This document shows, in pieces, positions 4,715 through 43,970 of a stretch of DNA of 64,000 nucleotides; the stretch's first letter is position 1, and every line of letters begins with the position of its first letter. The notes under the pieces are model-generated. The model saw only the letters and a list, made by a program, of their open reading frames with translations. It had not been told where the DNA came from and searched no databases. Made by a program: the position numbers and the translations under genes. The stretch spans positions 112,654,001 to 112,718,000 of the forward strand of contig NC_042998.1 of the NCBI RefSeq assembly GCF_006345805.1. The letters are read 5' to 3'. The stretch comes from Octopus sinensis. Taxonomy: Eukaryota.

Positions 4715-4839
4715 TTATAATCACTCTTATAGCTGTTTCAGCCTATGGAAAAAAGTAGTTTTTCAGTGCCTATAGTTGTCAGTTATATTGAAGTTGTAGG
4801 CATATAAAAATAGGGTGTAGGCCTCGTCAGTGATTATAA
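4715..4839 (-). ncRNA. Type I hammerhead-like motif with enlarged stem II
   Basis: Minus strand: TTATAATCA-CTGACGA-GGCCTA...TAGGCT-GAAA-CAGCT-ATA-AGAG-TGATTATAA. Confidence 0.6.
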
Positions 4840-5119
4840 AGAACTTTCAAATTATAAATTCATGAAACAGGATACACGTACAATTTAATATATATATAAA
4901 TATAAACAAATAACTATATACACATATATATATATATACATACATAAGCAAAGTATATACACCTTTACATGTGTATAAATACATAAGCACAATTAAACAA
5001 TATGTCCAAGCAAATAGACCATTCGTCATATACATATATACTGGAACATATACATACGTCCATGCTACGACACATTCTCACTCTGTCTCTTTTATTTCTC
5101 TCCCTCACTATCTCTCACT

Positions 5120-5175
<56 letters not shown>

Positions 5176-6419
5176 GCACTCTCACTATTAATCCATGCCT
5201 CTGTGTTTCCTTTTTTATGCTTTTGTTTTCCTGTCCATATTTCACATTAGTTTCACATACATACATCTGTAGGAAGCATACTTAGTTGAATTGACACTGT
5301 AGGGTAGAGATGATAAACTTATGACGTGCTATGGGTTTTTAAGTAACAAGCGATGGACTTCGAAAAGAAAGTATCCTCCTGAAATATCATGTTATACAAA
5401 AACATATCCCTGAATATTTGTCTATAACTAAAATACATGTAATCCACACGCCAATATCAGAATTATTAAAATAAACAATATTTTCCACACGTTGTGCAAA
5501 AAGGCTCGCCATCGTTGTTGCAGTGGTTAAGATATATAGATAGCTGGACTAGTACTAAGATGTTATTGTACAATAGTAGGGATGCACATGAAGTTCGACC
5601 TTAAAACGAAATGAATTGAGAATGTACGATGCTATCTCTCGTCTGTCACTACATCGTCCTTAGTATAAATTCCACACAGCATAATACTATAGCAAAGATT
5701 CCACATTAATTCTTTCTGATATTTAACACAAGGCCAGCAATGTTGAGAGAAAGTGAAGGTTGATCACATCGACTCCAGTGCCGAACTGGTACTTATTTTA
5801 TCGATCCCCAATAGCCGAAAGGCAAATTCAACTTTCGCGGAATGCTAAATTATATAATACTACATTATAAACATCAGTTTATGTAATATTCTACCATTCT
5901 AATACTATTGCATATACACCACTGTATGTAATTCTACAGCTAAATATTAAACTGTTATACTGTAGGATAAATATTATATTATGAAATACTATTGTATAAA
6001 TACCATCAAATAAATACTAATTATGTAATAATATAACACAAATATCAAAATTGGTAATACAATAGTATTGTAATATCATTGCATAAATACCATACGGCGT
6101 AATGTTATAGCATTTTGATACTACAGCTTAACCTCTAAGCACATTATGTAAAACGATAACACAGTCAACATACTATGTAATACTTTAGCATAAATACCAC
6201 ATAAATATAATACTCTCATGTAAATAATCTTTTCTACTAAAGGCAAAAGACATGAAATTTGGGGCGGAAGGATTAGTTGATAACATCGACTCCAATGTTT
6301 CAATAATACCATATAATATACTACAGCATAAATACTTCAAATGCGGTATAAATATCTCATTGTGCAATACTATAGTATAAAAATCCAAATTTACAATAAG
6401 GGTTTCACATTTTTGCATA

Positions 6420-6620
6420 AAGCTGGCAATTTTAGGGGAGAGGACAAGTCAATTGCACGGACCCCAGTACTTAACTAGTACTTATTTTAACGACTCCGAA
6501 AGGATGAAAGGCAAAGTTGACCTCGGCGGAATTTGAATTCAGAGTGTAAAAACGGACAAAATGCTACTAAGCATTTTGTACTGCATGCTAACTAATGATC
6601 CTGCCAGCCCACCTCCTTAA
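6420..6620 (-). mobile_element. SINE family A (tRNA head plus Deu/Nin-like central domain)
   Basis: Reverse complement of the ...TTCAAATTCCGCCGAGGTCAACTTTGCCTTTCATCCTTTCGG... core. Decayed copies also at about 5730-5845 and 6670-6840. Confidence 0.75.
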
Positions 6621-7119
6621 TCACAATTTATAAGTGTGTAGCATAAATACAGCTTTGTGTAATAAATGTTTCCACTATAGGCACAAGGGAAGTGGGGGCT
6701 AGTCGATTACACTGACCTCTGTGCAAAACTGATACTTTTTTTTATCGACCCCGTAAAAATTAAAGGCAAAGTGTAACTCGGCGATATTTGAACTCAGAAT
6801 GTAAGAAGTACTGCAAAGCATTTTGTCCGGTTTGTTCGCTGCCTGTGTAATAATATAGTGTTGTAATATCACACTGTGTAATATTGTAGCATTGCAATAC
6901 CATAACACAAATACTATATTATGTTGTACTTCAACATAAACACTATAATGCAATTCTACATCATTACTAACAACTAATCTTGACACCAAATACACGTCGC
7001 CTATATTAATTAGCGTATGGCTTAATTTTAACAGCGATAAAGTTGATATCCCAGTACAGATTACAGACCTCGTTTGTTTAAATATAGTTATAAAATATAT
7101 AAAAGAAAATATTGCTTAC

Positions 7120-7490
7120 CAAGACAGGCATTTAAACCCTTCTTCTAAGGTACCAACGAATTCATTACAGGAACTCTCTTTGAAAATATCTTCTTCGTCC
7201 ATTAGATCCGCAAGGCTCTTGCGACGCCTTTCACGGGATTTTTGAAGTAGAGAACTACTGATTTCTTTGAAACCGTGAGCAAATTCGTCAACACTAATGC
7301 GTCCGTCTCCGTCAGTATCCAATTCTTCGAATACATTATTTAGCTCATCCGTTGACAAGTCAGTACATACTGTCGCTAATTCAGACTGGTCAATATATCC
7401 GGAACCATCTAAATCACATGCCCAAAAAAGCTGTTGCATGTTTTGCTCGCCTTCGTCTCCGTTTTTCTTCTCCATATGGTGTAACGCCAT
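7120..7490 (-). CDS. First coding exon of an EF-hand protein, most like RASEF/Rab45 (Ras and EF-hand domain protein) or the CRACR2/EFCAB4 family
   Basis: ORF MALHHMEKK...QQLFWACDLDGSGYIDQSEL...NNVFEELDTDGDGRISVDEF contains two canonical EF-hand loops. The ATG is at 7490, and the frame meets a strong donor TTG|GTAAGC (GT at 7119-7118, phase 2). No downstream exon was recognised in 1-7118. The family call is from memory of the N-terminal architecture, not a search. Confidence 0.85.
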
Positions 7491-8028
7491 TTAATCGTAC
7501 CGGTGCAGAAGTGAAATCACTAAAGCAGACGATAAGATATTCAACAGCAATTATTTTAGTTATTGTAAAAAATAAATGATAAATTGCTATCGAAAGACTT
7601 TTACTTTTTTTCTTTTAACTCTTATTTGTTTTAAAACTACTTTTCTTTTATTTGTTTATCAATCAGTCAGTATCTCGGTTGCATAATTTTTTTATCGCCC
7701 TGAGAAATTTTTTTTTTTTTTTGGTTTCGTTACTCTTATCGTTATTTTTATTTCATAAATCCGTTTTCGATCTTATTTCTTAATTTTCATATCTCTTTTT
7801 TACTTTCCACTTTTTTCTTCTGTCTCTCTCTCTCTCCCTCTCTCACCCTTCCTCTATTTCTTTTTTTTTTTTTTTTTGTTAAATCCTCTTTCAGTTTCAC
7901 AAGATCTGCGACAAATCAAAACGGACAGCAGGAAGGACAGTGGTAAATCAAAATCAAAACTTTTGATGCTGCTTTAACCCGTTGGGTGGAACCATAGATT
8001 GTCTTGGAACATCGTTCTTGCCAGTTTC
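7491..8028 (-). other. Probable 5' UTR part of the EF-hand exon
   Basis: Pyrimidine-rich acceptor TTTTCCCCTTATTCTTACAG|GAAAC (AG at 8030-8029). No competing splice site was obvious between it and the ATG. Confidence 0.5.
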
Positions 8029-8060
8029 CTGTAAGAATAAGGGGAAAATTAACTGAAGTA

Positions 8061-8063
<3 letters not shown>

Positions 8064-8129
<66 letters not shown>

Positions 8130-8275
8130 ATATATACAAATACACACACACATATACATATATAGATAGATACATACATACATACATACATACAAACATA
8201 CATACATACATACATACATACATACATACATACATACATACATACATACATACATACATACATACATACGTATAT
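8064..8275. repeat. Compound microsatellite (TA)n(GA)n(CATA)n
   Basis: Direct observation. Confidence 0.95.
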
Positions 8276-8849
8276 ATGTACAAACAGAAAGAGAGAGAGA
8301 AGACAGAGATAAGGCAGACAGAAGAGAGAGAGAAGTCAAAAGAAGAGGGCAATCTCGATTCTCTTTCAAAGCTTCCGGAGTAGTGATGGTTAAGGGAAGG
8401 AATTGAAGAACTCATCGCCAAGCAGAAGACCTGCACCGAATACTAGTTGCAGAATGGACTCTAGTATAGTTACCCAAAGACCAGGTGGTAGTATTCAGCT
8501 GGGTTACGGATAGCATTTAAAACCCAACAACAGGAACAGTTCGAAGGGCGAACTTCCACACAGTTTCTGTCAACAGAAATTCATTCCCGTAATTAAGAGA
8601 AATATATTGTGAATCAGGACCAACAACGAGATGACAAACAAAAGCAAAAATCAAAAAGACTTACTCTTAAATGTGAGCATTATTTATTTTAACAACTTCA
8701 CTTAGTAAAGTAGAGCTTCGATTTGAGATCAACACAAGTTTGTTTAATAAAAAGGACATGTGTTTCACAATGAAACAGATGGACATTTTCGAAACTTTTC
8801 GCTATGGTAGTCATCTCAGTATTGATAATAATATTGATAGTAAAGATAA

Positions 8850-9195
8850 TGGTGTCGTTGTTGTTGTTGGTGGTGGTGGTCGCCGTCGTCGTCGTCGTCG
8901 CTGTCGTGGTGGTGGTGGTCGTCGTCGTCGTGGTTGTCGTCGTTGTTGTTGTCATCGTCGTTATCGTCGTGGCGGCGGTGGCGGCAGTAATGATAGTGAT
9001 GGTGGTGGTAGTGGTGTTGATCGTTGTCGATGAGGGAGTGTTGCTGCTTTTGTTTGTGGTGATGGTGGTGGTGTTAGGTTAAAAGCATTGTGAGGGGTTA
9101 GTGACTATTTTTATTGTAGTAGTGCTAATGTTTTTAGAGAATGTTGTCGTTGTTGTTGTTGATGATAGTGGTGGTGGTCGTGGTGTTGTTGGTAA
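8850..9195. repeat. Compound GTT/GGT/GTC trinucleotide repeat
   Basis: Direct observation. It explains the poly-T, poly-V and poly-R ORFs. Confidence 0.9.
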
Positions 9196-9619
9196 TATCA
9201 ACGGGGTGTGGCAGAGATAAAAGTTGGCAACATTTTATTTCCTAAAGCTTTCTGTTGACGTGAAATTAATAATAGAAAACAAGAACAACTCAACAATAAC
9301 ACCAACAATGCCAACAACAGACCAACATGACAACTTCTCGCCGGTCGTTCACACTGCTAGAAATACAATCCATATCACCCTCAAATCACAACATACTGTC
9401 TTAGATAGCGGAAGAAAACATTTGATAATATAGTCATGTCGGAACACATTTTCAAATTTCATCTACGACTACACGCACGCACACATATAAGGCAGGTTGG
9501 TCATATCTAGAATGTGCCTGGTCTGGTAAAATGGACAGACACATTGGACAATGTAGTCTTGCTTATGCAAAGGACGCGAAGAGGATCCGACCTAGAGCTG
9601 AATAACCACAACAATCATA

Positions 9620-9842
9620 ATCATTTCTACTATAGGTACAAGGCCTGAAATTTGAGTGAAAGAGGGTGAGTCGGCTACTTCGAGGGTGAGTCGGCTCAAC
9701 TAGTTCTTAATTTATCGACCCAGAAAGGATGAAAAGCGAAGTCGACCTCGACGACATTTGAACTCAGAACGTAATGCGAGAAGAAATACAGCTAAGTACT
9801 CTACCCGGCATGCTAACGATTCTGCCAGCTCGCCGCCTTAAC
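9620..9842 (-). mobile_element. SINE family A
   Basis: Full head AAGGCGGCGAGCTGGCAGAATCGTTAGC on the minus strand, followed by core and tail. Confidence 0.8.
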
Positions 9843-12299
9843 AAGAATAACCATAACAACAATGTGAGTCATAATATCTACAGCAACACAATTTGACAGA
9901 AGGAGAGAGAGAGACAGCGGAGTGGATTACAATTGCTTTTAAAGAAATATGAGAACGGCAACGATCTCATATTTTTTTTATAAATCTACCAGATCTAACT
10001 GGAAATTGAAATCGGGTTCACAGAATTAATTTCAGTGGCTACCCTGCAGCAACAAGCTCTCATAAACAATAGAAATTACTTGTGAAACAGATAAGATTTC
10101 TGAGAAAATAATGAGGATATATATCCGATGGGTAGGTGTTGAAATCGATAGAGCGTGGTACAAAATACTTTGTTGTATATGGTTACTTTCCTTTTATTCC
10201 CTAAATTCAAATCTTTTCGAGGTCTACTTTGCTTTTCATCGCCTCGAAGCCGATAAATAGCTTCCAGTCTAAATTAGTTGTGACAATCGTTGCAATGATA
10301 TATAAACATAAAGAACGTTAACTCAGTGTGGCAGCAGTGTAACAATGACTGGCACTAACAAGAGAATGCTAAATGCTATTCTAGTTAAGATCAAAGATGT
10401 CTTACCTGAAATCAAATGAATAGGCATCGTTAACATATTAATCTTACACCTTAGTCGATAACTTCATTTTAATAAAGAGTCGGATATTATAGCTATTACG
10501 ATAAAGCTTTAACGAAGCTTTTACTTTTCAAAAAGAAAATCTGACTAATCACAAAACTTGTAGAAACAGTTCTTACCTGCAATTTTCGATAGAGATTAGT
10601 GCATGAAGAGAGATCTGACCGGATTAACGAGGCATCGGCCTTCTATCGTCATCGTTGTTCATATGTGTGGTGAACTATTCACTATAAACAACTTAAGGTT
10701 GACCTTGGTGGACTACTTACGACCGTTGTCCACCTACTAGCAACAGCTGTTTATCTGAATTACTTCTCCGTCAACGCAACTACCACAAAGACCACGATTG
10801 CGTAAAATAATTCGTGAAATGATTTTCGATCTTGTTACACACAGGATTTGCTAACAGAACGAAGATGTTTAGTGTGTACACCTAGAAGTAGGGCGGCAGC
10901 AGACTACTCAGCTAGTGATAAAAATAAGAATTTTGGGCTGTAGAAAAGACAGAAGCACCTATATCCTTGTAGTTAGAATAAATTATTTCATTATACAGCT
11001 ACACGCCGAGCCAAACGAAAGAACGTTTACTTTGTGGACCGATCTACTTAAAATAGCAACCAAATCACCCTCAAATCACAATGCCGTCTAATCAGTGGAA
11101 GAACATATTGGATCATGTGATCCTAGATGCATTGTCAATGGTTTGCTCAGTCAGAACCAACCTGGGACTAAACAACAATACGAACCAACGGGGTGGTCTT
11201 CATGTGGCCTGTTAGATTGTTTGGCCTGTTAGCAGTAACAACTAAATCCTCTCCAATCAGAAGGGGCACATCAGATGTTAGCATAGTGTCAAGGTGTTTG
11301 AATTATGATCATGAAGTCGTGGTTTCTTTACCTGAACTGAGCGACGCGTTGTACCTTCAACAGCAAAATACTTCATTCTACTTTACTCCAGTCAACTCAA
11401 TTGTGATACGTACAAGTATTGGTACACCTCTCTTTTCTCGTAACTGTCCCATCCTGGATGTTCCTACATAAAGGCCCTAGAAGGTGTCTATGTCACAACT
11501 GAATGACATGGGTCGCGTCGAAAATCAAAATTATTCCTTTGGCTAAAAGTAAATGTTTATACTTATCACATTCCAACAACGAACCTGCTGATGTTCTTTC
11601 TCTCTTCACTTTGTTCCTTGGCTCGCTACTACATTGGTTTCTGCTCCTTTAAACTTGAAAATATCTACCACTCTCTTCCAATGATTCTGAGATTAAAATC
11701 AGTGGAGGGAATGACTCTGTCCCGCTGAGGTGTCCTATGAATTCTACGTGGTCATCAGTATTAGAGAACATCTTACATATTGTGTCTACCTGTCCAGAAG
11801 ATCTGAGAATTAGTATATTATTCGCATATCTGGATTCTGCGAGTAGATATGAGGTCTGTCTATAAGTGTGTTTCGTGAAACTGATGCATGCGTTGTCAAT
11901 AGTAATGAGTAGAAGTTAAGAAATGTCTGCGGCCGTATGGCCAGAACAGAAAAACTTGGAGGTGATGATTAATGGTTGGAAGTACAAATAATAGGATGTA
12001 GAAAGCTACAACCCCAAAGCTAAAGGTGCATCTATCGTATATGAGTATACCGAGGATCTTGTTGATGGAGTCTTTTGATGATGTACTTGTTTGTTTTACT
12101 CTTAAGAACCCAAGAATAAATAATAAAACGCCCATCAGAATTCATCAAAACTTTTAAGTCTCTGGAACTCCTTACGTACCCATTTTTCCTCTTAAACATT
12201 AATCTACAGAATTTTAACCTGAGCACGAATTGTATCGACCACCCTAGATTAGAAGGCCAACAAGGATATTGTTGCTATCTTCTCTCTAACATTAAGTGA

Positions 12300-13389: not shown

Positions 13390-13725
13390 GTGCCCGTTTG
13401 TACCAACACACCCTCTACATCCGGGACTCATTCTACTGCACCTCATCTAATCTGGTATGTTGTATTCAATGTACCCTTAGTAACAGTCTATGTGTTGGTC
13501 ATTCGGCTAGCCAACCGATTCACCGAAAATCTACGTGACGTCCACTTGCGGAAAAAATACCCCCGTCGTCTGTCATCTTTGCTGCGCCGGCCACTCCACA
13601 ACACACGTCACTGTTTTCGGCCTGGCCTTGCACCAAGAATCCACCAACACCAGACTTCGTCTTGAACAGTGCTACGTCTTCATTCTTTAAACCCAAACTC
13701 CATTTTGACTAAACACTACCACCTC
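13390..13725 (+). mobile_element. Penelope-like element GIY-YIG endonuclease fragment
   Basis: IRDSFYCTSSNLVCCIQCTLSNSLCVG / RLANRFTENLRDV. Homologous to DSFTCTSSNVIYCIFCSLCPSLYIG at 59.8 kb. Confidence 0.8.
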
Positions 13726-14559: not shown

Positions 14560-14960
14560 CACTTCTTATTTCCTTATTGCCCACAAGGGGCTAAACATAG
14601 AGGAGACAAACAAGGACAGACAAACGGATTAAGTCGATTACATCGACCCCAGTGCGTAACTGGTACTTAATTTATCGACCCCGAAAGGATGAAAGGCAAC
14701 GTCGACCTCGGTGGAATTTGAACTAAGAACGTAGCGGCAGACGAAATACCTATTTCTTTACTACCCACAATGGGCTAAACACAGAGAGGACAAACAAGGA
14801 CAGACAAACGGATTAAGTCGATTATATCGACCCCAGTGTGTAACTGGTACTTATTTAATCGACTCCGAAAGGATGAAAGGCAAAGTCAACCTCGGCGGAA
14901 TTTGAACTCAGAACGTAGCCCGGCGTGCCAACAATTCTGCCAGCTGGTCGCCTTAAACTT
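14560..14960 (-). mobile_element. SINE family A, tandem composite (core and tail duplicated)
   Basis: Two consecutive units of CCCACAA.GGGCTAAAC...GATTAAGTCGATTA...AAAGGATGAAAGGCAA...GAATTTGAAC. Confidence 0.8.
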
Positions 14961-15335: not shown

Positions 15336-15344
15336 ATATATATA

Positions 15345-15610
15345 ATTGGAATTTATAGAAAAATAAAAGCCGAAGACAGGTGTATAAACAACACGCAGGT
15401 GTATTAGTTTAACGCTCGGGAAGATGAGAAAGTATTTTACGTTTCGAGCTTACGCTCTTCAACAGAAAGGAACACTATAAAATAAACAGAGAGAATAAAA
15501 AAGCTTTAGCGAACAGCGGTCGATCATGGCGGCTGGCTGGACAGAGGTGATTAGACAGAAGGGCTAAGAAGAAGGGGACATAATAAAGTATTGGTGATCC
15601 CAAAACGAAG
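15345..15610 (-). mobile_element. Penelope-like pseudo-LTR fragment containing a minimal hammerhead-like motif (15435-15468)
   Basis: Minus strand: TTT-CTGTTGA-A-GAGC GTAA GCTC-GAAA-C-GTA-AAA. It follows (TA)n and lies near a Penelope RT fragment of the same orientation. Confidence 0.6.
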
Positions 15611-15954
15611 GTGTGCGTGCGTGTGTATGTGAGAGTTTGTAAGTGTGTGCTTGTGGATAGGGGCTGGTGACGACGTATGGATGTGTGCATATGTAAGTGT
15701 GTGCGTCTGTAATGTGTGGGTGTGTGGATGGGGAAGTGGTCAATGCTAGTGTGTGCGGAGTGGTGTGATGTGGTGTTGTGGTGTAGTGATGTGAGGTGTG
15801 TTGTGTTGTGGTGGTATGATGGTGCGGTGTGTTGTGTTGTGGTGTGGTGATGTGTGGTGTTGTAATGTGGTTTGTGGTGTGGTGGTGTGTGGCGAAGTGT
15901 GGTGGTGATGTTGGAGTGTGGGGATATGAAAGTGGGGTGTGGGGATGCGAGGGT

Positions 15955-16265
15955 GTGGGTTTGCATAGTTTGGGACCCATTCTCATTCCCATGGCCACTC
16001 CCGAGAAATATTGGTAAAACTCACTCGCGACCGAAAAGCTGTTGAGAGAATAAGTTCGGCCAGACGAAGAATTGTGGACGTGTCAGGTTGGGGGGTTAGG
16101 TCGAAGATCTAGGTAGCGTTTGAGGGCAAGAAACCCTTCGTGGTGTGGGATCACCGTATATAGACTCTTTATGTCAAGAGTGAAGGGAAGTTTAGAGAGG
16201 CCAGGAGGGAAGGAGAAAGAGTTGAAAAGACGAAGAGCATGGTTAGTGCTGTGGATGTGTAAGGG
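15955..16265 (-). mobile_element. Penelope-like reverse transcriptase fragment
   Basis: Hand translation across frameshifts: IHSTNHALRLFNSF...FTLDIKSLYTVIPHHEG...ILRLAELIL...GVAMGMRMGP.YAN. Confidence 0.8.
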
Positions 16266-16289
16266 GAGAAACCCGTCGTGTATGTATGC

Positions 16290-16365
<76 letters not shown>

Positions 16366-19051: not shown

Positions 19052-19284
19052 AAAGTTAATCCAAACAAGAAAACACAAAAAAAAAACAAAAAAACACAAC
19101 AACGCGAGGACGTGGAACAAATATAGTATTATTGGACGCTCAGGAAAGAAGGGAAGAAGGAGGGTTTAACGTTTCGAGCGGAGCTCTTCGTCGGAAACAT
19201 AAGAGAAGGAAAGATCCCGAGAAGGGAAGACAGAGGAAAAAAACCGCCAACGGTACTCACGAGGTCACATTTTGAAAAAAAAAA
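19052..19284 (-). mobile_element. Short hammerhead-bearing (Penelope pLTR-like) insertion with a long flanking duplication
   Basis: Motif 19164-19198, minus strand: GTTT-CCGACGA-A-GAGC TCC GCTC-GAAA-C-GTT-AAAC. TATATATACATATCTATCTATCGATATATA occurs at both 19021-19050 and 19291-19320. Confidence 0.65.
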
Positions 19285-19419: not shown

Positions 19420-19436
19420 ATTTATTATATAGAAGG

Positions 19437-19486
19437 AGCTTCTACAGGACTAGAACTGTTTCATCAAGAGAAATCTTCAGGAAGCT
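19437..19486 (-). ncRNA. Type I hammerhead ribozyme motif (monomeric form)
   Basis: AGCTTC-CTGAAGA-TTTCTCTTGAT-GAAA-CAG-TTCTAGTC-CTG-TA-GAAGCT. Perfect 6-bp stem I, intact core, paired stem III and a GUA triplet; stem II is weak. Confidence 0.7.
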
Positions 19487-19667
19487 AGTTAACAAGAATT
19501 GTATTGGCATTTATACATTTAGGCAGGTTTAAGGGGTGTTGGTGGGGACTTTTTGGGGGTAGGCATAGCGCAAAAAATCATACTTGGGGGAGTGGTCAAG
19601 GAGTCAGTGTTAAATTAGATAGGAGAATAAATAAAAAATAATAAATAATAAATAAAAAATAAAAAAT

Positions 19668-19718
<51 letters not shown>

Positions 19719-20271
19719 TATTGATAATTCGTAGGGATTTCTCCAAACCTTTACCGGTTTGCTCACAGAGTTAGATATTTAAAAATAGGTTGTTGAAAGC
19801 TTAATATATAAATCCAATAATAATTCTCATAAGATAAGAATTCAGAGATATATTCCGTTGGATAATTCTAAAAATATTACCTTAACCACATAGATTTCCT
19901 GGAATACATAATATCAATAATAATAATAGTAATAATAATAAGGACTATTCCGAAATGACTTAGCATTACCTTCAATTACTTTTTATTTATACAGTTGAAA
20001 CACGTGTCTCTCTATTTAAAGCTGTATATATAAAAAGGAATTAAAGGTAATGCTATGCCACTTCGTAATAATCCTCATTATTATTATCATTATTATTTCA
20101 TGATCGATAAATTACCAAGGAAACATTGGTGTCAGTGTAATCGACTATACCCCACCCCAAATTTCAGGCCTTGTGCCTATAGTAGAAAGGATTATTATTA
20201 TTATTGTTGTTGTTGTCGTTGTTGTTATGATTATTATTATTATTGTTATTATTATTATTATTATTATTATT

Positions 20272-24990: not shown

Positions 24991-27239
24991 AATGACCGCG
25001 AACCCACAAGAGTAAACAAGAGAGAGACAGAAACAGGCAGAAACAAGGAAAATGCTCCCTGTATTTGAATACTATATAAATATTCTTTTAAAAAACTTTT
25101 CTTTTAATTTTTTCCAAAATTTAATTGTTTTCTATACTTACAGAAGAAAAAGTCTCAATGATTGAAATCGGTACTGAAATGTTTTTTATAAAATTATGTT
25201 AACATTTTCTACCTTGACTCTTTTTTCCATATATATATATATATACATATACACTCTAGATGTAAGACAACATATGGTTGAAGACTTGTTGATGACTGGA
25301 AGAGGTCTGAGAGGGGTAGAGGCAGCAGATGTATTTTTCAGAGGTATTGTTAGGGACACTTTCCATTATAGTAACTGAAAGCTTGCTCGCAGACATCACA
25401 TTTCAGAGGGAGGAACCAGTAGAGACTTTTGCTAGGATAGACTGCAATATCAAGTCATAAACATTGAGGCATGGTATTGCAACCTAGGTTCAAGGAAATA
25501 TCTGATGCACAAAAGAGATAGAGAGACGGCTGATACAGGTTTAGTGATATTAACAGCAAAGTTGTGACCTTCATCATAAGCAAGTGTCCAAAAATTGTCA
25601 TGACACACGTAAACATATACATACACATATCAACACATTACACACATAAACTTGTTACTGACACAAATACACACACACACACACACACATACGCACACAC
25701 ATATAACACATTACATATACAAACTCATACGAAAGCACATATACAGACATATTACACATGCGCGCTGGCGACAGTTTTTTCACAGCTGTAAATTTGCCAG
25801 CTGCTGCATTTGTTGATTTATGAATTTCTTTAACGTAACCTACACACACTCACAGACTTATACACACACTTGCACACATATGCGCGCGCACACATACATT
25901 CTCTTACAGAAAGAGATACAGAGAAATACAGAAAGAGCAAAAGGGGGTGGATAGATCACTTGTCTAAGAAAACTACTACAAAATGTAAGCGAGTGAACAC
26001 CAGCTGTAGATCTCGAGAACAATACGAAGGATCAACACAGTAAGACATTATGGAGAGCTACTACACTGATAATGGCCGATAAGTTATACTGAACTAGGCT
26101 GGAGTTTGTTCTAATATTTAATATCGATTTTTGCATAGTTTTTCCTACACATACTGTTATAAACTGACTTACTTCTTCCTCTACGACACTTGCTGGGTGA
26201 AGTCTGGTATTACATTTGAACTCGATCCTAAGTAAATGAAAATTCTTGACGTTCTACTCACCAAATATAACATCGAACTAATGTGAGCAAGCTTACATCT
26301 GTGTGTGTGTGTGTGTGTCTGTGTGTGTGTGTCTGTGTGTCTGTGTGTCTGTGCTATAGTGTACATTAACATATAACTATATTTTAGCCAAGGAGAATGT
26401 ATCGGACAGATGCAAACACCTTGCACCTGAATAAAAGGCATCCAGTAATATTTTGTATATAAACGCAAGGTGTTTACATCTCTCTACTGCATACAGTGTT
26501 CACTAAAATCTATAGAAGTATTCTGTAGTGCAGTGTAATATTGTAACAACACACTGTTAAGATACTAGTAATTTATTAATGGAACCAGCTCCTAAGAATG
26601 CGTTACAAATGCAAATCGGTGAATTCGATTTATTTAAGCTCTTACTAATAATATGTAGTATCTAATAATATCTAATAATTAACTTCCACGTCGATGGGGA
26701 TACTAACATTATAATGTCTGTGGGGCCGAGGTAGAGATCTAAGGTCCAAACGGCATTTGATTGTCACATCGTATTACAAATAACACTAAGCGAATACTCT
26801 CCTAAAACAGACCTGCTTATCACAGTCAGTACCACAGCAAACCTGACTCCCACTGCTACTATTTTACCTGCAATCAGGTTGATCAATGAGACACCAGTGA
26901 CGATAATAAGTGTACTACGACTGGAAGAACGAAAAGTATGGATAATTGAAAGATGCCCTTAGAAAAATGCTTCAAAGAAAGATTATTTCATTTTTTAAAA
27001 CTCCCATTGCAAAACGTACCACGTCTGACTAGCATTGATAAAACACCAACTGATTTGCTGTTTTGTTAAACGAAATCGGATTGAAATTTTACAACAGAGT
27101 AATGATCTTCATTTTGGTGAATTAACGCTTGTTTATATGCCCCGCCAACAACTGCAAAACAGTGCCAAGTTTGTTGGTGTTGTCAGAAATGAATTTGAGC
27201 ACCCCACAAAAATAATGTTCAAGAGGTAAAAAACTACTG

Positions 27240-33308: not shown

Positions 33309-33381
33309 TAGTATGCGTAGGAATCGAATCCACACCTCTCATTTTCGCGATAAATGTGCTGACCGATTACACCAGCATACC
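33309..33381 (-). pseudogene. tRNA-like sequence (degenerate), partial copy at 32473-32530
   Basis: GGTATGC TGGTGTAATCGGTCAGCAC A TTTAT CGCGAAA ATGAG AGGT GTGGA TTCGATT CCTAC GCATACT folds as an imperfect cloverleaf with A and B boxes. Confidence 0.5.
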
Positions 33382-35582: not shown

Positions 35583-35663
<81 letters not shown>

Positions 35664-35877
35664 GATTTTCCTTGTGTAGTTGTCTTGTACTCTTTATTTT
35701 CGTTGTTAAAAAAATGGTCCGTTCCATGCGTTTTTACCTTTTCGTTTCTCGTTGAGTTCTACGTCTATTTGTGGTGTCCTGTACACACGTATATATATTT
35801 ATATATGCATGTATATTAACATGTAGATGTAGGCACGTACACATATGTTTGTATGTATGCATATATTTTATTTATTA

Positions 35878-36029: not shown

Positions 36030-36282
36030 TGTATGTATGTATGTATGTATGTATGTATGTATGTATGCGAAAATAAAGACAATAGGTGAGAACTGGAGAT
36101 GTTCACTGTAGAACACACATCGTAGTGCTCAAAAGGATTTGAACTGTAACTCCGAAGAGTGGTTATAAGAGAAATCCAAATTGAGCTGATATCGAAGTAG
36201 TAAAGGAGATTAACAAAGTTAGGCTTCGTATTTACAGGGAACATAAAAACTACAGAATGAAATATGAAGAAACTATATAATT

Positions 36283-36433
36283 TCTTAACTCGACAGCTGT
36301 TTCGGGAAGCTCAGAATTACGTAATAATCATAATAATCGTAATTTGCTGATGAAATATGCAACAAGTCATGCGTCTGTAATTGGTAATCAGTCACATGAT
36401 GATACAAGTTCGGCTCCTCTCTTCAGGAGAAGA
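36283..36433 (-). ncRNA. Type I hammerhead motif with an enlarged stem II and palindromic stem III
   Basis: TCTTCTC-CTGAAGA-GAGGAGC...(about 105 nt)...GCTTCCC-GAAA-CAGCT-GTC-GAGTTAAGA. Intact core and GUC triplet. Confidence 0.7.
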
Positions 36434-36802
36434 TAAACAAATTAGATTTTTATAGTAGTCTTAGTAAAAATATAGACAGTTAAAGAGAGAGGGGAATCAA
36501 AACGAGCTTAGGGATTACGTAAAGAGCAAGGAGAACGTCTAGAACATAAGAAGAAATGAAGAAGTATAGAATGGAAGAAACAGAAAAAAGAAAATAATGT
36601 TAAAATCAGCCTAACGAGACTTCAACTTTCTTTTCGCCCTTTCTCTCTCATTATGATTGCAATATAACTCTGGTCCTCCTAAAACAGCTGTCGAATTAAG
36701 AAATTACATATTTTCTTCATATTTTATTTTTACCCTCATTGTGTAGTTTTTGTACTCCATGCAAATATATTGATACCAAGCCTGTATTCATTCCCATTTC
36801 TA

Positions 36803-36845
<43 letters not shown>

Positions 36846-37269: not shown

Positions 37270-37320
<51 letters not shown>

Positions 37321-37527
37321 TTGTATGTCTGTATTTGTCCCCCTCCAACATCGCTTGACAACCAATGCTGGTGTGTTTACGTCCCCGTAACTTAGCGGTT
37401 CGGCAAGAGACCGATAGAATAAGTACTAGGCTTACAAAGAATAAGTCCTGGGGTCGATTTGCTCGACTAAAGGCGATACTCCAGCATGGCCACAGTCAAA
37501 TGACTGAAACAAGTAACAGAGTAAAGA

Positions 37528-37530
<3 letters not shown>
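37098..37530 (+). mobile_element. Full-length SINE family C (OR/OK-like) with internal (TG)n
   Basis: Head GGAGTGGCTTTGTGGTAAG...GGTTCCGGCTTCAGTCCC, internal microsatellite, and tail ...CAGTCAAATGACTGAAACAAG. Also at 47270-47665 (-) and 49328-49730 (+). Confidence 0.8.
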
Positions 37531-37563
<33 letters not shown>

Positions 37564-40092
37564 TCCTTACCATATATATATATATGGCACTTGATGTGCT
37601 GACCTGGACGACAATATATCAACATATATATATATAGAGAGAGAGAGAGAGTGGGGACACACTATATAGTAAATAAGATTTCTAGAGTACTGACCGACTT
37701 TTCCAGGCCTATTAAACAGAATATGTAATCCACCTACTGCTGTAGATATGTAGTCATCACTGTAAAATATTCATTCCTGAACTGGTCAGCTGACTTTACA
37801 AGGAGTAGAAGGAGGTTGCAGGAAGAAGCAGTGACGACCTGTGTGTAATATATGTCGCTAGTTCTATATATTTATTTATTTATTTATTTGTGGCTATTTA
37901 TGTGCATGTATTTATATTTTCCTTCATTCAGTTTCCTTACTCTCTATGAATTACTGACCATGAAATACATTTCTTGGTCAAGAAATATATTTCAGGTCAA
38001 ACTACCGCACCTGTATGGTCGTTTGACCATGCTAGAAATAGCACAAAAAACTTATTCAAATAACACCCTAGCTTCTTGGAAAATGAAAAGACACGTTAGA
38101 AGGTATTTGTAAATGCATCGGAAAAGGTGGGATAGTCACGACCATGATTATAAGTCTGTTCTATAAGAGTCGACTTGCGGCTATATATCAACAGCACTTA
38201 TTTGCACCAATGGTATATGGATCACCGTGTTTGTGTGTGTGTGTGAGGTGTGTGTGTGAGTGTGTGTATGTGTATGTGTGTCCTTTCCAATATAGGCACG
38301 ATCAAAAATACTTGTTCTTAAAAACATTCCAATCGTGAATATCCCGTCTGTTGTCCCCCACCTTTCAATATTTATTCCAACTCTACATTCTGGGTTCAAA
38401 TCCCGCCGAAGCCAACATTGCCTGTTATTTCGGGGTTGATAAAATAAAATACTAGACAAGTACTGTGATTGGTGAAATTGAATAACCCCCTACCCCAAAT
38501 TTTAGGCGTCATGCCTATGCTAGAACCAATTATACGTAATGTGTCCTCCCTCTTTTTTTTTATAAGAAAAAAGGTGGACAGTTATTTCATGGTACTATGA
38601 CTGCTATTTTTAGAAGGTGAAGCTACCACGTAGAGGCTGCAGTGTGACATTTAATATAAAGATCTGTGCATAACAAAGTAACTCATGAGAAAGTATTGAT
38701 GTAAATGCTATTGAAAATGTGCAGTGTTATCAATAAATAATGTTGTGAAAGGTTGCATACTTTAGCAAAAACTGGTCTTTTACAACAAATATTTTTAAGC
38801 CTCAAAGTAATCGATTGAAACCATAATTAGTTCCCAATAGTACTCTTGGTATTGTTGTTGCTGTTATTACTGTTGCCGCTGATGCTGGTACTATTTAAAC
38901 CAAGGTTAGTCCTGATCACACAGAGCTATGATGAAGTCATTCAAGCAATGGTTTTATTTAATTGTATTTGGACATACTGCATCTAAGATTACATCATCCA
39001 ACATTTCTTTCCCTTTTACAAGTCAGTAGGATGCGATATGAGGAAGACCTGATTGCTGTTTCTAGCGGGACTAGGATAGCGACTACGTAGAGACTCTTAA
39101 TTTTGATAATGGTAATAAAATGCTGATATATATTTCAATAAGTTTCTAATGTTCATTGAAAGATAAATCTATGTAGTGATTTTTACTCTTTTGTTAATAA
39201 TAGCTAGCGGGACTTGAGGAAATCTCACGTTAAATTATAATTTTGCTACATAAATTCATAGATTGCCAAAGCTTCCAATATAGTATCAGTCAAGTACTAA
39301 GGTCAATATATGCCTCTCCAAACTTCTGGCCTTATGTCTATATTAAAAACAATGCTTTCAAAGATTTCGATTTGTCTTTCGATTTCGTTCTATAGTTAGA
39401 ATGGCTAACAGCGCAACATTCGAACGCATGTTGCAACCAGCAGGTAATGAATATTATGCAAAATGCTACATGCGATAACCTCTTCTCCTTTTGTAACGCA
39501 TAGAAGTAATCGATCACAGTATTTGAAGTTAACGAAATATTAATTACTGCAGTGAACTACTGTACTTTCATACGATGTTTATTTACAGTTTTGTGAAGTG
39601 CTAATTAAGAGACAAATGACTGTATCATGAACAAACTGTAGTGTTAATGAGTTACATACTGTTGACCTATCGGTATGATGACAACTGGCATCTTCTCAAC
39701 GCTAGTGACCTCGTTTTTGCTTCCTCCGTTTCTTTCGCTTTTCTTTTTAATTTTTAACATAGGCACGGCCAGCAATTTTGAGAGGAGATTCTAAGTCTAT
39801 TACATTGACCTCTAGCAGAACCATTAGCACGCTGGGCAAAATGTTTAGCAGTATTTCTTCCGGTTCTTTACATTCTGGGTTCAAATCTCGCCAAGGTCAA
39901 TTTTGCTTTTTCTCTTTTCGAAGTCCATAAAATTGGGTATCAGTCATGTACTAGGGTTTATTGGATTGACTAATACCCTCCCGCCACAATTTCTGGCCTT
40001 GTGCTAAAAGGTGAAACCATTATTGTTATTATTATTATAATTATCATTATTATTATTATTATCATTATTATTATCATTATTATTATTATTAT

Positions 40093-40294
40093 TAAGGCGG
40101 CGAGCTGGCAGAATCTTTAGCACTTAAACAGCATTTCACCCGTCATTACGTTCTGAGTTCAAATTCCGCTGAGGTCGACTTTACCTTTCATCCTTTCGGG
40201 ATCAATAAATTAAGTACCAATGAAATACTGGGGTCAATGTAATCGACTAGTCCCCTGCCCCAAAATTTCGGGCTTTGTGCCTTTAGTGGAAGGG

Positions 40295-40300
<6 letters not shown>
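40093..40300 (+). mobile_element. SINE family A in (ATT)n
   Basis: AAGGCGGCGAGCTGGCAGAATC head through to the tail. A decayed copy precedes it at about 39810-40020. Confidence 0.8.
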
Positions 40301-40327
<27 letters not shown>

Positions 40328-40359
40328 TTGCATGCCAATTTAGTTAGTAGGTATTCTAT

Positions 40360-40757
40360 CGTGAGGTTTGATGACAACAAGTCTCCTCAAATCTCAAGAA
40401 TCTTCCTTAGAATTCTTGCAGAATATAGAATGATAGATTTTTTTCTGGTTGACAACACGAGTTTCATTTCCAATCTCTTTCAGTCTTTTAGGTAGAATTT
40501 TGGGTGTTGTGCCATGTGAACCAATTACTACAGAAATAATTGTTGTCTTGGTCTTCTACAGTCTCCTCGATTCTCTGGCTAGATCCTGATATTTCTCAAT
40601 TTTTATTAATTTTTTGGTATCGACTCTGCAATCATAAGGAATTGAAAAGTCTATGATCGTACACTATTTGTATATTTTGTCCCCTACGATCATATCCGCT
40701 TTTCTTGCTGCAATAGTAAGGTCAGTCATTATGGGGATATCGCACAAGACCTTGCAT
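40360..40757 (-). mobile_element. R4/Dong-like LINE 3' fragment (RLE domain)
   Basis: Minus-strand reading gives KVLCDIP...IAARKADMIV..., then IDFSIPYDCRVDTK..., and ends RILRKILE. Lies within (TAA)n. Confidence 0.65.
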
Positions 40758-40765
40758 TATTATTA

Positions 40766-41300
40766 TTGAGTGAGAGAGAAGAGCATGCCATCAAAGTGAC
40801 CCAGAGATATATGTATACGAAGCCCAATATACCCATCATGGCTATCCGTCTGATAAGGGTACACCAGGTACATGTATCACAACCATATGTGCGCGACATG
40901 TTAATCTCATATCAACATACACAGCGCATGACTTTTTAGGTGGAGCCCAGTTGGAATTTTCTTCGATAAGCGCATCCGCTCAAAATGTCTCTGAATAAGG
41001 GTTGTTTAAGAATGATGAACGAAACACTTATGTTTTCATAACTGAATTATTCAAACACCGAAGAATCCCTCACAACACATAGCCATGATATTTCTCCAAT
41101 ATGCCTGCTTGTGATCAAAGATGCGCATACCGTCAGCCACTAAGGGACACGCTAACTGATTAACGTCAGACAACCGACAAGCAAACCTGTGGTACTGAGT
41201 AGAATATAACCTGAAGCTCATCTTTTACACTAAGTAAAAAATATGTACATGATATAACACTTCTAATCAGTTAAGACCAGAAGCCATGACAGCTGCTGCA
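40766..41300 (-). mobile_element. About 550-bp non-coding interspersed repeat (family D)
   Basis: Colinear with 54468-55027 (TGAGTGAGAGA...GCCATCAAAGTGAC...CAGTTAAGA.CAGAAG). Confidence 0.8.
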
Positions 41301-41931
41301 TGACCATCATCATTACCATCATCATCAATGTACAGCATGTCATTCAATGCGAATTCCAGAATTATCAGCTGGCTATTAACTCTAGCAGTATAGCTATTCT
41401 AAAATATATCACGATATACTGTACAAAAAAAGTCGGCATTAACCGAACGGCTGTTACGTTGACCTCCTTAGACAATACATCTTAAACATGAAATAACAGT
41501 AAAATTATAGTGCCTCTAACAGTTATCTCTAGCCTCTCGATATTTTTTCTCTCCTACTATTTTTTCTCTTCTATCTATTCTATATTCCGTTCGAAATATC
41601 TCCCAAGCGTTACCCATAACAGTTCGTCTTGGCCTAACGGCCCTTAATGCATATCTTCGTCAATTGTTTATTCTGTACGTCCACTCTGGTGTCGTTTGTT
41701 CGTTCAAAGCCCTATCTCTCCTTAAATTTTATATTTTTTAAACCTCTGGATGCTGCTGTCTTATGAAGTTTTCCTAGCTTGTCGTTGAAAGCTCGAAACA
41801 TGTAGTAATAAACAGTCGGCAACTGAGGAGGAGTTAGACTTTATTTGGTATTTTGTCCTGTACTTATCTCTGTGTGTTTACGCATCTTTCCTGTACTTAA
41901 TGTGTATTTTTGTATTTGTCCTGTATATATA

Positions 41932-42785
41932 TACAAGCAATATTGCCCGGCTCGTGCGCTCGTGCCTTCTATGCTCGCGCGAATTAAGCTAAACTTGGAT
42001 GAAGTTCAATCAAAATTCAATTATTTTGGTTTTAAAATCAAGCATTTAATGCCCTCTATTTTTGCGCTTATGTGTTCCATTTCCTCAATAAGAAGTACGT
42101 AGAAGCGTTTCATAAATTTTTGTTGATCAAATAATTGCATTGTTGAATTATTCTTTTAGATCAGTATTTCTCAACGGGGATTTCAGGGGAGAGTTTCAGG
42201 GAGTCGCTGGCGATGTATTGTGATGATCAAAAATCCGGCCTGCTAAAATTTGGTTAAAGTGATTCAAACTGCAGACTGAACGCAAAATGGTCACATTTAA
42301 TTCAAAGCGTTAAAAATGTTATGAAAACAATTGGTATGTGTTCACAAAGTCCAAACGATTAATACGAAAAAACCCTCCCGGCTACATCCCGAAAATTCAT
42401 TTCTTTGTCGAATTTCTACAATGTTTACGGCGATTCGTTTTTATATCTTGATTTTTTATTTTTCATGCAATTTTCGCATGCTTGCACGCGTGGTGAACAC
42501 AGTTCACATCAAACAGCTGACTGAGTAAAGTTCACTATTCAATGCATGGGATAAGGCCTAAACAAACACATTATCGATTTTTGCACTTGCGAGATGAATT
42601 TCGGAACAGAAATAGCGCAGTTCAATTTTCATTCGCCTAAACTTTAAGTGACCCATTTTTGGTGGCTCTACGATTTGTTGGCTAGGAGGAAGTTAAACAC
42701 ACAGACACACACACAGATACACACCCAGACACACACACAGATACACACCCAGACACACAAGTTGAGTTTTATATATATATATAAA
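41932..42785 (-). mobile_element. Helitron-like non-autonomous element (tentative)
   Basis: One end resembles a reversed 3' end (ACAAGC...CCCGGCTCG); the other has a CA-rich microsatellite and ends TTTTATATATAT. Confidence 0.35.
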
Positions 42786-43152
42786 TATATCGTCTGTCAG
42801 GATGTTTTGTTGTCCCCTTTTTGTATCAATTAACTGTCTGGATGTTTTGCGTTCTTGTCTCATTTTTTTTTTCAAAATATAGCAGCGTACGTACACTTTG
42901 GTCTCTTATATATAAGTATATATATATATATAAATATATATGAATTTTGTACGTCTCTATTATTCTTTCTATTCTTTCATTCTTTCATTCTTTCTATCAG
43001 CCCATTCACATTTCGTTCATTCCACTCTTCGTTCCCATTCTCTCACATTTCCTGGCCTTCGCTTCATGTTCACTTCTCCTCCTTTTTCACTTCACTCTGT
43101 CCCTTTCATTTTTTCTCGTCCATCCCTAATTCTTCTATCCTTCTGCCTCTAC

Positions 43153-43200
<48 letters not shown>

Positions 43201-43914
43201 CTCCCCACGTGACCGGTGTTCGGCCAAGCCTGGCCTTTCTTTCTTGGTTCGACTGCCATCCGTGCAACATCTATATTCCTCCCTGTACCTGTCAAATCTT
43301 ATGTCCCTGCCGTAAGGCTTTACTTCCACACACGCCAACTTAATTTAATTCGTCCTTAGTCGAAAGATATTCGTTGTTAATGTCCTGTTATTTGTATTTG
43401 TGTACCATTTCTCCGTTTCTTTCCGTCCATATTTTCGTATACATTCACTGCTTTCTTCCAAGGAGTCTGGTGGTCTTAGCTTATTTTTCCCTTGGGGCTG
43501 GCCAGATTGGAGCAATCTCGAGTATAACCAGATGAAATTGCAAAGATAATCTGGAACTCGACTGAGGAAAGAAAACTCCGAATGACCCGTCCTTGTTTTC
43601 TTTCTATTGTCTGTCTGAATGTTTTGTTATCGTCTTTTTGTATCACCTAACTGTCTGGATGTCTTACGTTCTTGTCCCATTTTTGTATTATATATATATA
43701 TATAAAGTATGGTGGGGTTTAGTTCACAGGTGATTTAAACAATTAAGTACGCGGCGTAAGTGCTGTAACGGATTACTAGTGCTCCAAGGTTATAGCCGAG
43801 ACGGTAGTTATGTAGCCATTGAAGATTTTCGATATACCGGATATATAATTGTTAAAGAGGAAAAAAACGTTAAGGCAAAGCAAACATCTCTAGTCATATA
43901 CATTTTCCCTATTT

Positions 43915-43970
43915 GTCTCTGATAATAGAATATTCCATACTATGAGATATCCCGGAAACAGCTGTAAGAC
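43915..43970 (+). ncRNA. Type I hammerhead-like motif at the apex of a long hairpin (43843-44050)
   Basis: GTCT-CTGATAA-TAGAATATTCC...GATATCCCG-GAAA-CAGCT-GTA-AGAC. Stem I is GTCT/AGAC, stem III is the palindrome ACAGCTGT, and the core carries a G8A change. Confidence 0.65.

Follow-up and report, generated by a model that had tools for sequence, protein, structure and literature searches.

Hammerhead motifs beside TA repeats at an Octopus sinensis locus: probable terminal-repeat ribozymes of Penelope-like elements and a predicted long-stem form

What kind of element carries the hammerhead-like motifs that lie beside microsatellites in the octopus genome? We address this question in a 64,000-nt stretch of the forward strand of Octopus sinensis (GCF_006345805.1, NC_042998.1:112,654,001-112,718,000), hereafter the window, in which a first-pass annotation had recorded at least six type I hammerhead-like motifs and assigned them to separate, non-autonomous, retrozyme-like elements mobilised by Penelope enzymes. 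Our analyses indicate that the motifs are very probably the hammerheads of the terminal repeats (pLTRs) of several protein-coding Penelope-like element (PLE) families, present in the window as 5'-truncated tails beside TA repeats. The features are as follows (window positions; letters A to J denote repeat families):

4226..4384, minus strand: weakly matched remnant (tblastn E 4e-4 to 0.008) of a Hydra-type endonuclease end, belonging to a different and older element
4531..5066, minus strand: family C, 5'-truncated 3' end of a Hydra-clade PLE, adjoining (TA)n at 4463-4531
4728..4830, minus strand: family C long-stem-II hammerhead, core halves 84 nt apart here and about 98 nt in the family
13416..13669, plus strand: Neptune-type GIY-YIG endonuclease fragment followed by CA-rich sequence (E 1e-11)
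15340..16290, minus strand: family B, internally deleted Neptune-type element between TA runs
15438..15465, minus strand: family B minimal hammerhead, A6U core change fixed in the family
19058..19275, minus strand: family A, pLTR of 215 bp with a TA run on either side, about 95% identity among copies
19168..19194, minus strand: family A minimal hammerhead, U4C core change fixed in the family
19425..19720, minus strand: family D, 3' end of a young Hydra-clade element, 98% identical
19443..19480, minus strand: family D hammerhead, core canonical, short stem II with U-U at its base
25141..25173, plus strand: family H, degenerate hammerhead relic in an old repeat
36070..36610, minus strand: family E, 3' end of an old Hydra-clade element adjoining (TATG)n, about 75% identical
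36292..36426, minus strand: family E long-stem-II hammerhead, intact core letters, core halves 116 nt apart
36650..36810, plus strand: family E pLTR, partial and inverted, with the 3' half of the motif at 36681-36692
41560..41935, plus strand: family G pLTR-like repeat, degenerate hammerhead at 41760-41804
43330..43690, plus strand: family J pLTR-like repeat, degenerate hammerhead at 43562-43586
43700..44045, no single strand: family F (Hydra clade), two joined pLTR arms, one inverted and bearing a 140-bp tail, the other direct
43919..43966, plus strand: family F hammerhead, stem II of about 12 bp, G8A in the window copy
59824..60769, minus strand: disrupted RT-thumb-GIY-YIG stretch from the family to which the family B pLTR belongs, its own pLTR lost

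Four of the six motifs are as originally described, at 15465-15438(-), 19194-19168(-), 19480-19443(-) and 43919-43966(+), whereas those annotated at 4715 and 36283 had been mis-parsed, because a long stem II separates their 5' core halves from GAAA, placing these halves 84 and 116 nt upstream of it; the complete motifs run 4830-4728(-) and 36426-36292(-). Among the degenerate motifs, 25141-25173(+) and 41760-41804(+) are present, but the one placed at 36680+ is a 3' half only, within the inverted partial copy of family E; a further relic, at 43562-43586(+), had been overlooked. Strict and relaxed descriptors found more motifs in the window than in shuffled sequence (1 against a mean of 0.017 in 60 shuffles, and 3, one of them 10100+, against 0.1 +/- 0.3 in 20 shuffles), while a loose scan for core plus stem II gave no significant excess (6 against 2.7 +/- 1.9). 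Moreover, 10100+ and 18367+ have no family among 290 loci and look like chance matches, and no hammerhead family appears among the best 150 of 171 Rfam matches to the window (E<=10). It is at the level of families that the reality of the motifs is strongly supported. The proximity to microsatellites holds as well: in five families a TA run stands at the 3' end of 30/30, 23/25, 20/20, 19/25 and 12/20 copies, compared with 10.7% of random 135-nt stretches of the window. The description of these motifs as type I hammerheads of the Penelope kind, with a palindromic stem III and TA-microsatellite targets, was correct.

The view that each motif lies in a short non-coding segment applies to the window copies but not to their families, whose longer copies carry an RT or endonuclease gene upstream. 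All six main motif families run upstream into a same-strand RT or GIY-YIG gene, this linkage resting on few long copies in families A, C and E; in families A to F the motif lies in a terminal repeat downstream of a same-strand RT-GIY-YIG ORF, and the element L351 has it in both pLTRs. The linkage to PLE ORFs that had been proposed as a check is found, in cis, for all six, and naming Penelope RT/GIY-YIG as the mobilising enzyme was right. The families divide into Neptune-type (the motifs at 15435 and 19164) and Hydra-clade (4715, 19437, 36283 and 43915).

In family A, the piece upstream of the pLTR continues into A at 29/30 loci and reaches protein at 3/30. The window copy of family B consists of an RT fragment (15971-16273), a CA-rich 3' UTR and the pLTR; the latter is located 3' of RT-EN, in the same orientation, in 21/30 RT loci, and conversely PLE protein is found upstream on the same strand in 11/25 family B loci. 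No pLTR was seen with the GIY-YIG fragment at 13416..13669. Translations of L211 and of the 59.8-kb stretch of the window have a CX2-5CxxC linker and a CCHH motif before and within the C-terminal GIY-YIG, features of the Neptune clade that also fit Nematis and hence are not exclusive, so that the assignment is to Neptune or Nematis. The CX4CxxC linker of family B, the cysteines inside its GIY-YIG motif, the TA targets and the minimal hammerhead all resemble Neptune (or Nematis) elements; unlike those, the octopus cores bear family-fixed substitutions. Neither A (U4C) nor B (A6U) retains the canonical type I core, and the two changes occur in 41 and 37 of 82 Neptune-type motifs, respectively; neither is among the variants in the portion available to us of the survey by Cervera and de la Pena (2014, PMC4209133).

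Families C, D, E and F, like the genome-wide long-stem class treated below, have the core CUGANGA ... GAAA ... UH with stems I, II and III, although the window copies of C and F are damaged, C through loss of bases from the 5' strand of stem II and disruption of the stem III palindrome; the predicted fold of the window copy of E is not the hammerhead. Stem III of family D comprises 4 bp with an 8-nt loop. An endonuclease lies upstream of family C on the same strand in L252 and L254 and inverted in L257 and L258 (10 stretches). The ORF of family D lies about 2.3 kb upstream of the motif in L201, L202 and L203, with a 3' UTR of about 2.3 kb and a 70-bp tail; contigs of four runs, by our guess RNA, cover this family, contigs being unable to show ends, strand or circles. 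Hydra-type protein matches occur at 4/25 family E loci, lying upstream on the same strand in L091, L097 and L101. The upstream piece of family F continues into F at 20/25 loci, with same-strand protein upstream at 7/25. Inverted copies were seen at 7/20 loci in D and 4/25 in E.

The Hydra clade of PLEs, which includes octopus Hydra-1_Obim (Craig et al., 2021, PMC8557442), is marked by DKT in place of DKG, found here in L167 (family D) and L351, together with a CxCX5C linker, no CCHH, and an endonuclease with CxxC and CxH, all present in D (L201) and F (L530, L519), the linker also in L351. Families C and E are assigned by similarity of the endonuclease end to Hydra-type queries only, and the 36 database relatives (33-48% identity) bear no clade names. 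For the Hydra and family B ORFs Pfam gave no useful match; the RVT_1 domain in 1/5 ORFs searched belongs to a neighbouring PLE. The octopus families further share with that clade the (TA)n targets, tails, inverted copies and a hammerhead near the 3' end, often with U-U or G-U at the base of stem II. They differ in size: a length below 3 kb is typical of Hydra elements, though this describes the clade and does not strictly define it, while here the L351 unit reaches about 4.8 kb and 3' UTRs extend up to about 3 kb.

Copies have their 3' end in common, at (TA)n; their 5' ends are ragged and tandem arrangements rare. We therefore interpret them as 5'-truncated pLTR tails, a known state of PLEs (PMC8557442, PMC4209133). 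At first look, pLTR candidates outnumbered those of the upstream piece (864 against 80 in C, 2518 against 316 in F and 1397 against 640 in A). According to PMC4209133, metazoan PLE pLTRs carry minimal type I hammerheads that are like ours in topology, short stem I, palindromic stem III and high diversity within a genome, and are mostly single motifs 'probably related to truncated PLEs', with some inverted pairs 100-700 bp apart. From known PLE biology, we infer that the GIY-YIG of the element would nick TA-rich DNA and that RT would start just downstream of the hammerhead; most insertions would hold only the pLTR because RT copies backwards through a long, simple-repeat-rich 3' UTR (0.4-3 kb), and reverse transcription primed at the cut target would likely stop early. 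The copies found in the window are probably dead.

Many Hydra-type families of the octopus genome have a stem II that appears to have grown to a paired arm of 50-110+ nt, while the core, stem I and an 8-nt palindromic stem III are retained beside it. The 4715 and 36283 motifs belong to this class of thousands of copies, which is predicted to be self-cutting. Exact genome-wide matches with 51-111 nt between core halves number 9,219 (7,337 + 1,882), against 27 (16 + 11) for the reversed control, and the short form (6-36 nt) gives 258; in a 112-141 nt class only 2/15 sampled matches passed the stem test. Stems I and II were not part of the search pattern, and thus their pairing, seen in 52/60 sampled long-stem matches, is independent of it; a metagenome scan served only as control and gave about chance matches, of which 2/117 passed the stem test and none had a PLE protein match. 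Stem sequences differ between families. In 17 clusters, 109/136 stem II pairs and 55/68 stem I pairs are formed, compared with 73 +/- 6 and 33 +/- 4 with partners swapped, and none of 2000 swaps reached either observed count. Covariation rests on these clusters, across which stems I and II vary yet pair, and on a C-related clade, for which RNAalifold backs only nine outer stem II pairs (both-side changes in 3/9), with no inner helix and stem I not predicted; stem I was also absent in 8/14 constrained folds. The element L351, a full-length Hydra element organised as pLTR-ORF-pLTR, carries the motif in both 342-bp repeats. Rfam gave 0 matches at gathering score on 13 long-stem loci, and we found no description of the long-stem form. 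In PMC4209133, helix II measures 7-8 bp; Hydra hammerheads in File S2 of PMC8557442 have a loop II of 3-10 nt, compared with stem II regions of 56-116 nt here, and the nearest in length in that study are two spikemoss PLE-X motifs (about 47-54 nt), marked as non-canonical. Cleavage competence is predicted for the source elements of the long-stem form, probably as dimers or assisted by the element's protein.

Tentatively, we speculate that Hydra-clade PLEs might have made stem II a structured functional module of 50-110+ nt, maintained by selection across many separate families, about 36 times as numerous as short forms (by one descriptor) and escaping standard searches; it might serve as a docking site at which RT-endonuclease licenses cleavage, or, in one group, display a poly(A)-type signal 24-26 nt ahead of the cut. 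As a general feature of the insert, the poly(A) signal was rejected, occurring at that distance in 3/14 folds, all of one related group. A spliceosomal intron in stem II was likewise rejected: several inserts do begin with GT, but in others the first two bases are GC, GG or GA, and splicing the insert out would take the closing helix with it.

It is also possible, if rather doubtful, that the hammerheads are mostly inert passengers and the long stem II a tolerated AT-rich growth in an unneeded ribozyme. High-copy families with the fixed U4C and A6U changes, the broken consensus cores of G, H and J and the expanding TA or TAAT runs in some inserts would agree with this, as would an anole element (PMC11167929) in which hammerhead mutations left insertion in vitro unchanged and reads ending at the cut site were not seen. 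However, the closing helices of stems I and II stay paired despite varying in sequence, 9/17 inserts fold better than their own shuffles (z <= -2.9), and both-side changes occur in the C-related clade.

We consider it improbable that the motifs mark non-autonomous retrozymes, i.e., short tandem-transcribed, self-cleaving, circularising units reinserted by Penelope RT in trans. Animal non-LTR retrozymes (PMC7229834; 10.64898/2026.07.22.740005) likewise carry a type I hammerhead in pLTR-related, non-coding repeats of a few hundred bases, and the second source derives retrozymes from pLTRs; moreover, family A starts within about 15 nt of one site in 28/30 best loci, a sharp 5' start like that of a unit-length element, and family G has a second direct copy in 4/20 loci and a PLE protein match in 0/20. 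Retrozymes, however, are tandem units with a hammerhead in each, while those of the window occur singly or in inverted orientation, and each of the six main families extends into an ORF in cis, none being without a protein-coding part. A second direct copy was found at 3/30, 0/25, 0/25, 0/20 and 0/25 loci, and no window copy is in tandem. With 5' ends ragged and tandems rare, the proposal of separate retrozyme-like elements is not upheld. At least two consecutive hammerhead-bearing units do occur elsewhere in the genome, in L353 and L354, whose tandem units of about 535 bp contain a long-stem hammerhead, show no ORF over 4-4.5 kb and fit the retrozyme definition; a non-autonomous minority may also exist among the degenerate families at 25141, 41760 and 43562. 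Finally, that the motifs arose by chance in an AT-rich, repeat-rich genome, as the loose scan and the Rfam results might suggest, is extremely improbable, and is refuted for the families by an excess of more than 300-fold over the reversed pattern, the fixed position near the 3' end of PLE families and the pattern-independent stem pairing.

Read as pLTR hammerheads of PLE families, the motifs of the window reduce the original claim to known Penelope biology. The long-stem form bears on how such motifs are counted. In this 2.7-Gb animal genome it is apparently the most frequent version of the motif class, yet hammerhead censuses that limit loop II miss it; where PLE surveys score 'no hammerhead' or 'half core', the call may therefore be an artefact of the descriptor. 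What PLE hammerheads do is an open question (PMC8557442), and one of them was found to be assisted by protein and dispensable in vitro (PMC11167929). The octopus genome offers a natural series for addressing this role, since nearly intact families that have perfect cores and a stem II either short or very long stand alongside successful families with altered or broken cores.

The window, with a GC content of about 36%, dense microsatellites and seemingly octopus-like repeats, was examined by sequence reading and scanning. It contains six main hammerhead motifs, assigned to repeat families A to F, as well as three relics (families G, H and J) and one half motif:

Hammerhead motifs in the window
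4830-4728, minus strand: hammerhead of family C (sequence reading and scan)
15465-15438, minus strand: hammerhead of family B (sequence reading and scan)
19194-19168, minus strand: hammerhead of family A (sequence reading and scan)
19480-19443, minus strand: hammerhead of family D (sequence reading and scan)
25141-25173, plus strand: relic hammerhead, family H (sequence reading and scan)
36426-36292, minus strand: hammerhead of family E (sequence reading and scan)
36681, plus strand: half motif, within an inverted copy of family E (36283)
41760-41804, plus strand: relic hammerhead, family G (sequence reading and scan)
43562-43586, plus strand: relic hammerhead, family J (sequence reading and scan)
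43919-43966, plus strand: hammerhead of family F (sequence reading and scan)

The six main motifs had been reported in the first-pass annotation and are retained, but the 5' core half of those at 4715 and 36283 really lies far upstream of GAAA. A strict descriptor matched the window once versus 0.017 times per shuffle (60 shuffles), a relaxed descriptor including stem III three times versus 0.1 ± 0.3 (20 shuffles), and a loose one six times versus 2.7 ± 1.9; hence, the proposed comparison with shuffled controls favours the motifs under the first two descriptors, but not under the loose one. Given these counts, the window by itself provides modest evidence, and the strong evidence comes from the families. 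No hammerhead was present among the 150 Rfam matches listed of 171 for the window. The window copies are probably inactive: that of family C has a deletion in stem II, that of family F carries G8A, that of family E misfolds, and those of families A and B have altered cores. The best preserved is the family D copy, which at 19463 is one base short relative to other family copies and to contigs of four public runs, possibly an assembly slip. Short 3' stubs of other pLTR-like repeats (35660-35800 and 42770-42900) lie beside TA runs and end before their hammerhead region. The window also holds a 184-bp repeat in 1.9 tandem copies (14567-14919), common in the fetched loci, that splits the CA-rich tail belonging to the element at 13.4 kb, a tRNA-like match (33309-33381, minus strand; 39.6 bits, above the Rfam gathering score), and a near-perfect, MITE-like inverted repeat of 157 bp flanked by microsatellites (49850-50006).

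Our analysis of the surrounding sequence revealed that the six main motif families are the tails of coding Penelope-like elements (PLEs). In 21 of 30 loci fetched with the RT-endonuclease fragment at 59.8-60.8 kb, a B-type terminal repeat (pLTR) follows downstream in the same orientation. Conversely, a same-strand PLE protein lies upstream of family B in 11 of 25 loci, including the window's own copy. In family D, the ORF is found about 2.3 kb upstream, beyond a simple-repeat-rich 3' UTR (loci L201, L202 and L203). The piece about 1 kb upstream of family C gave 80 candidates versus 864 for the hammerhead part, and among ten longer stretches the endonuclease was upstream on the same strand in two and inverted in two; family E showed Hydra-type matches in 4/25 loci, three of them upstream on the same strand. 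The upstream piece of family F (316 candidates versus 2,518) runs on into F in 20/25 loci, with a same-strand protein upstream in 7/25, while that of family A (640 versus 1,397) runs on into A in 29/30, a protein being reached in 3/30. No PLE protein match was found in 20 loci of family G, while the analysis of families H and J consisted of alignment. In locus L209, a family C copy is preceded upstream, at 2459-6867, by a second family of Neptune type, which has an inverted copy and an RT frame that stays open over 618 codons.

The first-pass annotation had interpreted the motifs as non-autonomous, retrozyme-like elements mobilised by Penelope RT/GIY-YIG. Their assignment to hammerheads of the Penelope kind holds, but none of the six main motifs can be read as a retrozyme, since retrozymes are by definition tandem units (excerpts of PMC7229834 and 10.64898/2026.07.22.740005) and these families are linked in cis to PLE genes. 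A second direct copy was seen in 3/30 loci of family A (two being the same place) and 4/20 of G, and in 0/25, 0/25, 0/20 and 0/25 loci of B, C, D and E, respectively; inverted copies occurred in 7/20 loci of D and 4/25 of E. A candidate for a true retrozyme exists elsewhere in the genome, at L353 (1484-2409) and L354 (1166-3502), where two to three direct tandem units of about 535 bp, plus an inverted copy, each carry a hammerhead with a 51-nt spacer, and an ORF is absent from the fetched stretch.

A first look at the 2.72-Gb assembly gave 347-4,238 matches per main segment, which are candidates, not copy numbers. In the best 20-30 loci aligned per family, copies are 98% identical in D, 95% in A, about 86% in B and C, about 80-87% in F, about 82% in G and about 75% in E. 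A TA run marks the 3' end in 30/30 loci of A, 23/25 of B, 20/20 of D, 19/25 of C and 12/20 of G, versus 10.7% of random stretches, although these counts are possibly inflated by a few terminal TA letters in some queries. Despite the upstream continuation of family A, 28 of its 30 best loci begin near one site. Optional tails occur in D (70 bp) and F (140 bp). In 9 of 15 two-armed copies of family F (L057-L075), a count biased by query length, the turnaround lies in or beside hammerhead stem II, which suggests cDNA fold-back at this hairpin.

Judged by diagnostic protein motifs and similarity, family D shows every Hydra feature given by Craig et al. (PMC8557442, in part), namely DKT, a CxCX5C linker, no CCHH, CxxC plus CxH, and (TA)n targets. 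The linker, CxxC and CxH also occur in the endonuclease of family F, and families C and E show similarity to the endonuclease ends of Hydra-type elements. Family B has a CX4CxxC linker and CCHH, as in Neptune/Nematis, and the endonuclease upstream of family A is 54% identical to that of B. Across 82 distinct Neptune-type motifs, from fetched loci enriched for A and B, position 4 is C in 41 and position 6 is U in 37, split by family; an A6 change reduced activity according to PMC3088659. Within families, non-CpG core sites were off consensus at 13/830 versus 475/15,175 nearby, a mild difference, consistent with selection on source elements, not on copies. The U-U at the stem II base of family D is a known hammerhead feature (PMC7229834, PMC8557442 and PMC3088659, each in part).

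Families C and E have their 5' core half far upstream of GAAA, across an extended stem II (the long-stem form). A genome pattern (core, G, spacer, GAAA, 6-nt RRYY-type stem III, UH; stems I and II left free) gave 7,337 matches versus 16 in the reversed control at spacers of 51-81 nt, 1,882 versus 11 at 82-111 nt, 256 versus 30 at 112-141 nt (the window E copy being listed here), and 258 versus 16 at 6-36 nt. The long-to-short ratio of 36:1 is valid for this descriptor only, since motifs of A, B, D and mostly also of F type fall outside the pattern and the scan covered spacers of 6-36 and 51-141 nt; independent insertions are fewer than matches, because many matches are inverted pairs. A TA run lay within 300 nt downstream in 49 of 60 pattern-selected loci (a raw count). 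Of 60 matches sampled on contig C1 (the first 30 + 30), 52 passed a stem test versus 2/117 metagenome matches, with only 2/15 passing in the longest class. The 60 matches form 17 clusters, some related and hence not independent, whose representatives pair at 109/136 positions in stem II versus 73 ± 6 with swapped partners and at 55/68 in stem I versus 33 ± 4; none of 2,000 swaps reached either observed value. For 13 C-related sequences, RNAalifold kept nine outer stem II pairs, three with changes on both sides, and predicted neither a shared inner helix nor stem I. Constrained folding cost 1.4-6.8 kcal/mol, with stem I formed in 6/14 folds; in 13/14, stem III forms an 8-nt palindrome whose predicted homodimer energy is -10 to -11 kcal/mol. 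A full-length Hydra element at L351 (about 4.8 kb, frameshifted) has a motif with a 56-nt spacer in each of its two 342-bp pLTRs. Rfam gave no match in 13 long-stem loci. The commonest long-stem group (L291, L300 and L302) has an AAUAAA/AUUAAA hexamer in the stem II internal loop, 24-26 nt before the predicted cut and followed by U-rich sequence; the other 11 folds lack a hexamer at this distance.

In rodent Clec2 genes, the hammerhead is discontinuous, being interrupted in stem I by a long insert. Literature searches on hammerheads, Penelope elements, octopus and cephalopods gave no description of a long or extended stem II or of a large helix II loop, nor did the excerpts of PMC3088659, PMC6155905 and PMC6765202. 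In the available parts of PMC8557442, Hydra loops II (Craig File S2) measure 3-10 nt, unlike the long-stem form, while two spikemoss PLE-X motifs have about 47-54 nt between core halves; its supplement already includes a (TA)n-targeting, hammerhead-bearing octopus Hydra family, but that hammerhead is unlike every one of the window. Excerpts of Cervera and de la Pena (PMC4209133) describe minimal hammerheads as mostly single, as probable derivatives of truncated PLEs, and as weakly active even in dimeric form. Given such published PLE hammerhead and truncation data, the basic nature of the window motifs is already known in kind. PLE pLTR hammerheads are of a known kind, while the abundant long-stem-II variant is apparently undescribed.

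The data directly show that the families are linked in cis to PLE genes, that their 3' ends lie next to TA runs, that truncated, tailed and inverted copies occur, and that paired stems flank an intact core. By analogy with known PLE biology, the GIY-YIG domain would nick TA-rich DNA, priming would take place directly downstream of the hammerhead, and the RT would often stop early within the long, low-complexity 3' UTR. Frangieh et al. (PMC11167929, in part) explain the PLE tail by internal RT initiation and report a protein-assisted hammerhead that is dispensable for in vitro insertion. The long-stem motif is predicted to cleave, probably in dimeric form or assisted by protein. At L201 (4050-8316), the family D element represents a very young Hydra family with a near-intact ORF and a 2.3-kb 3' UTR made almost entirely of TA/TG-type simple repeats. 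Elements of this kind may both seed and target microsatellites.
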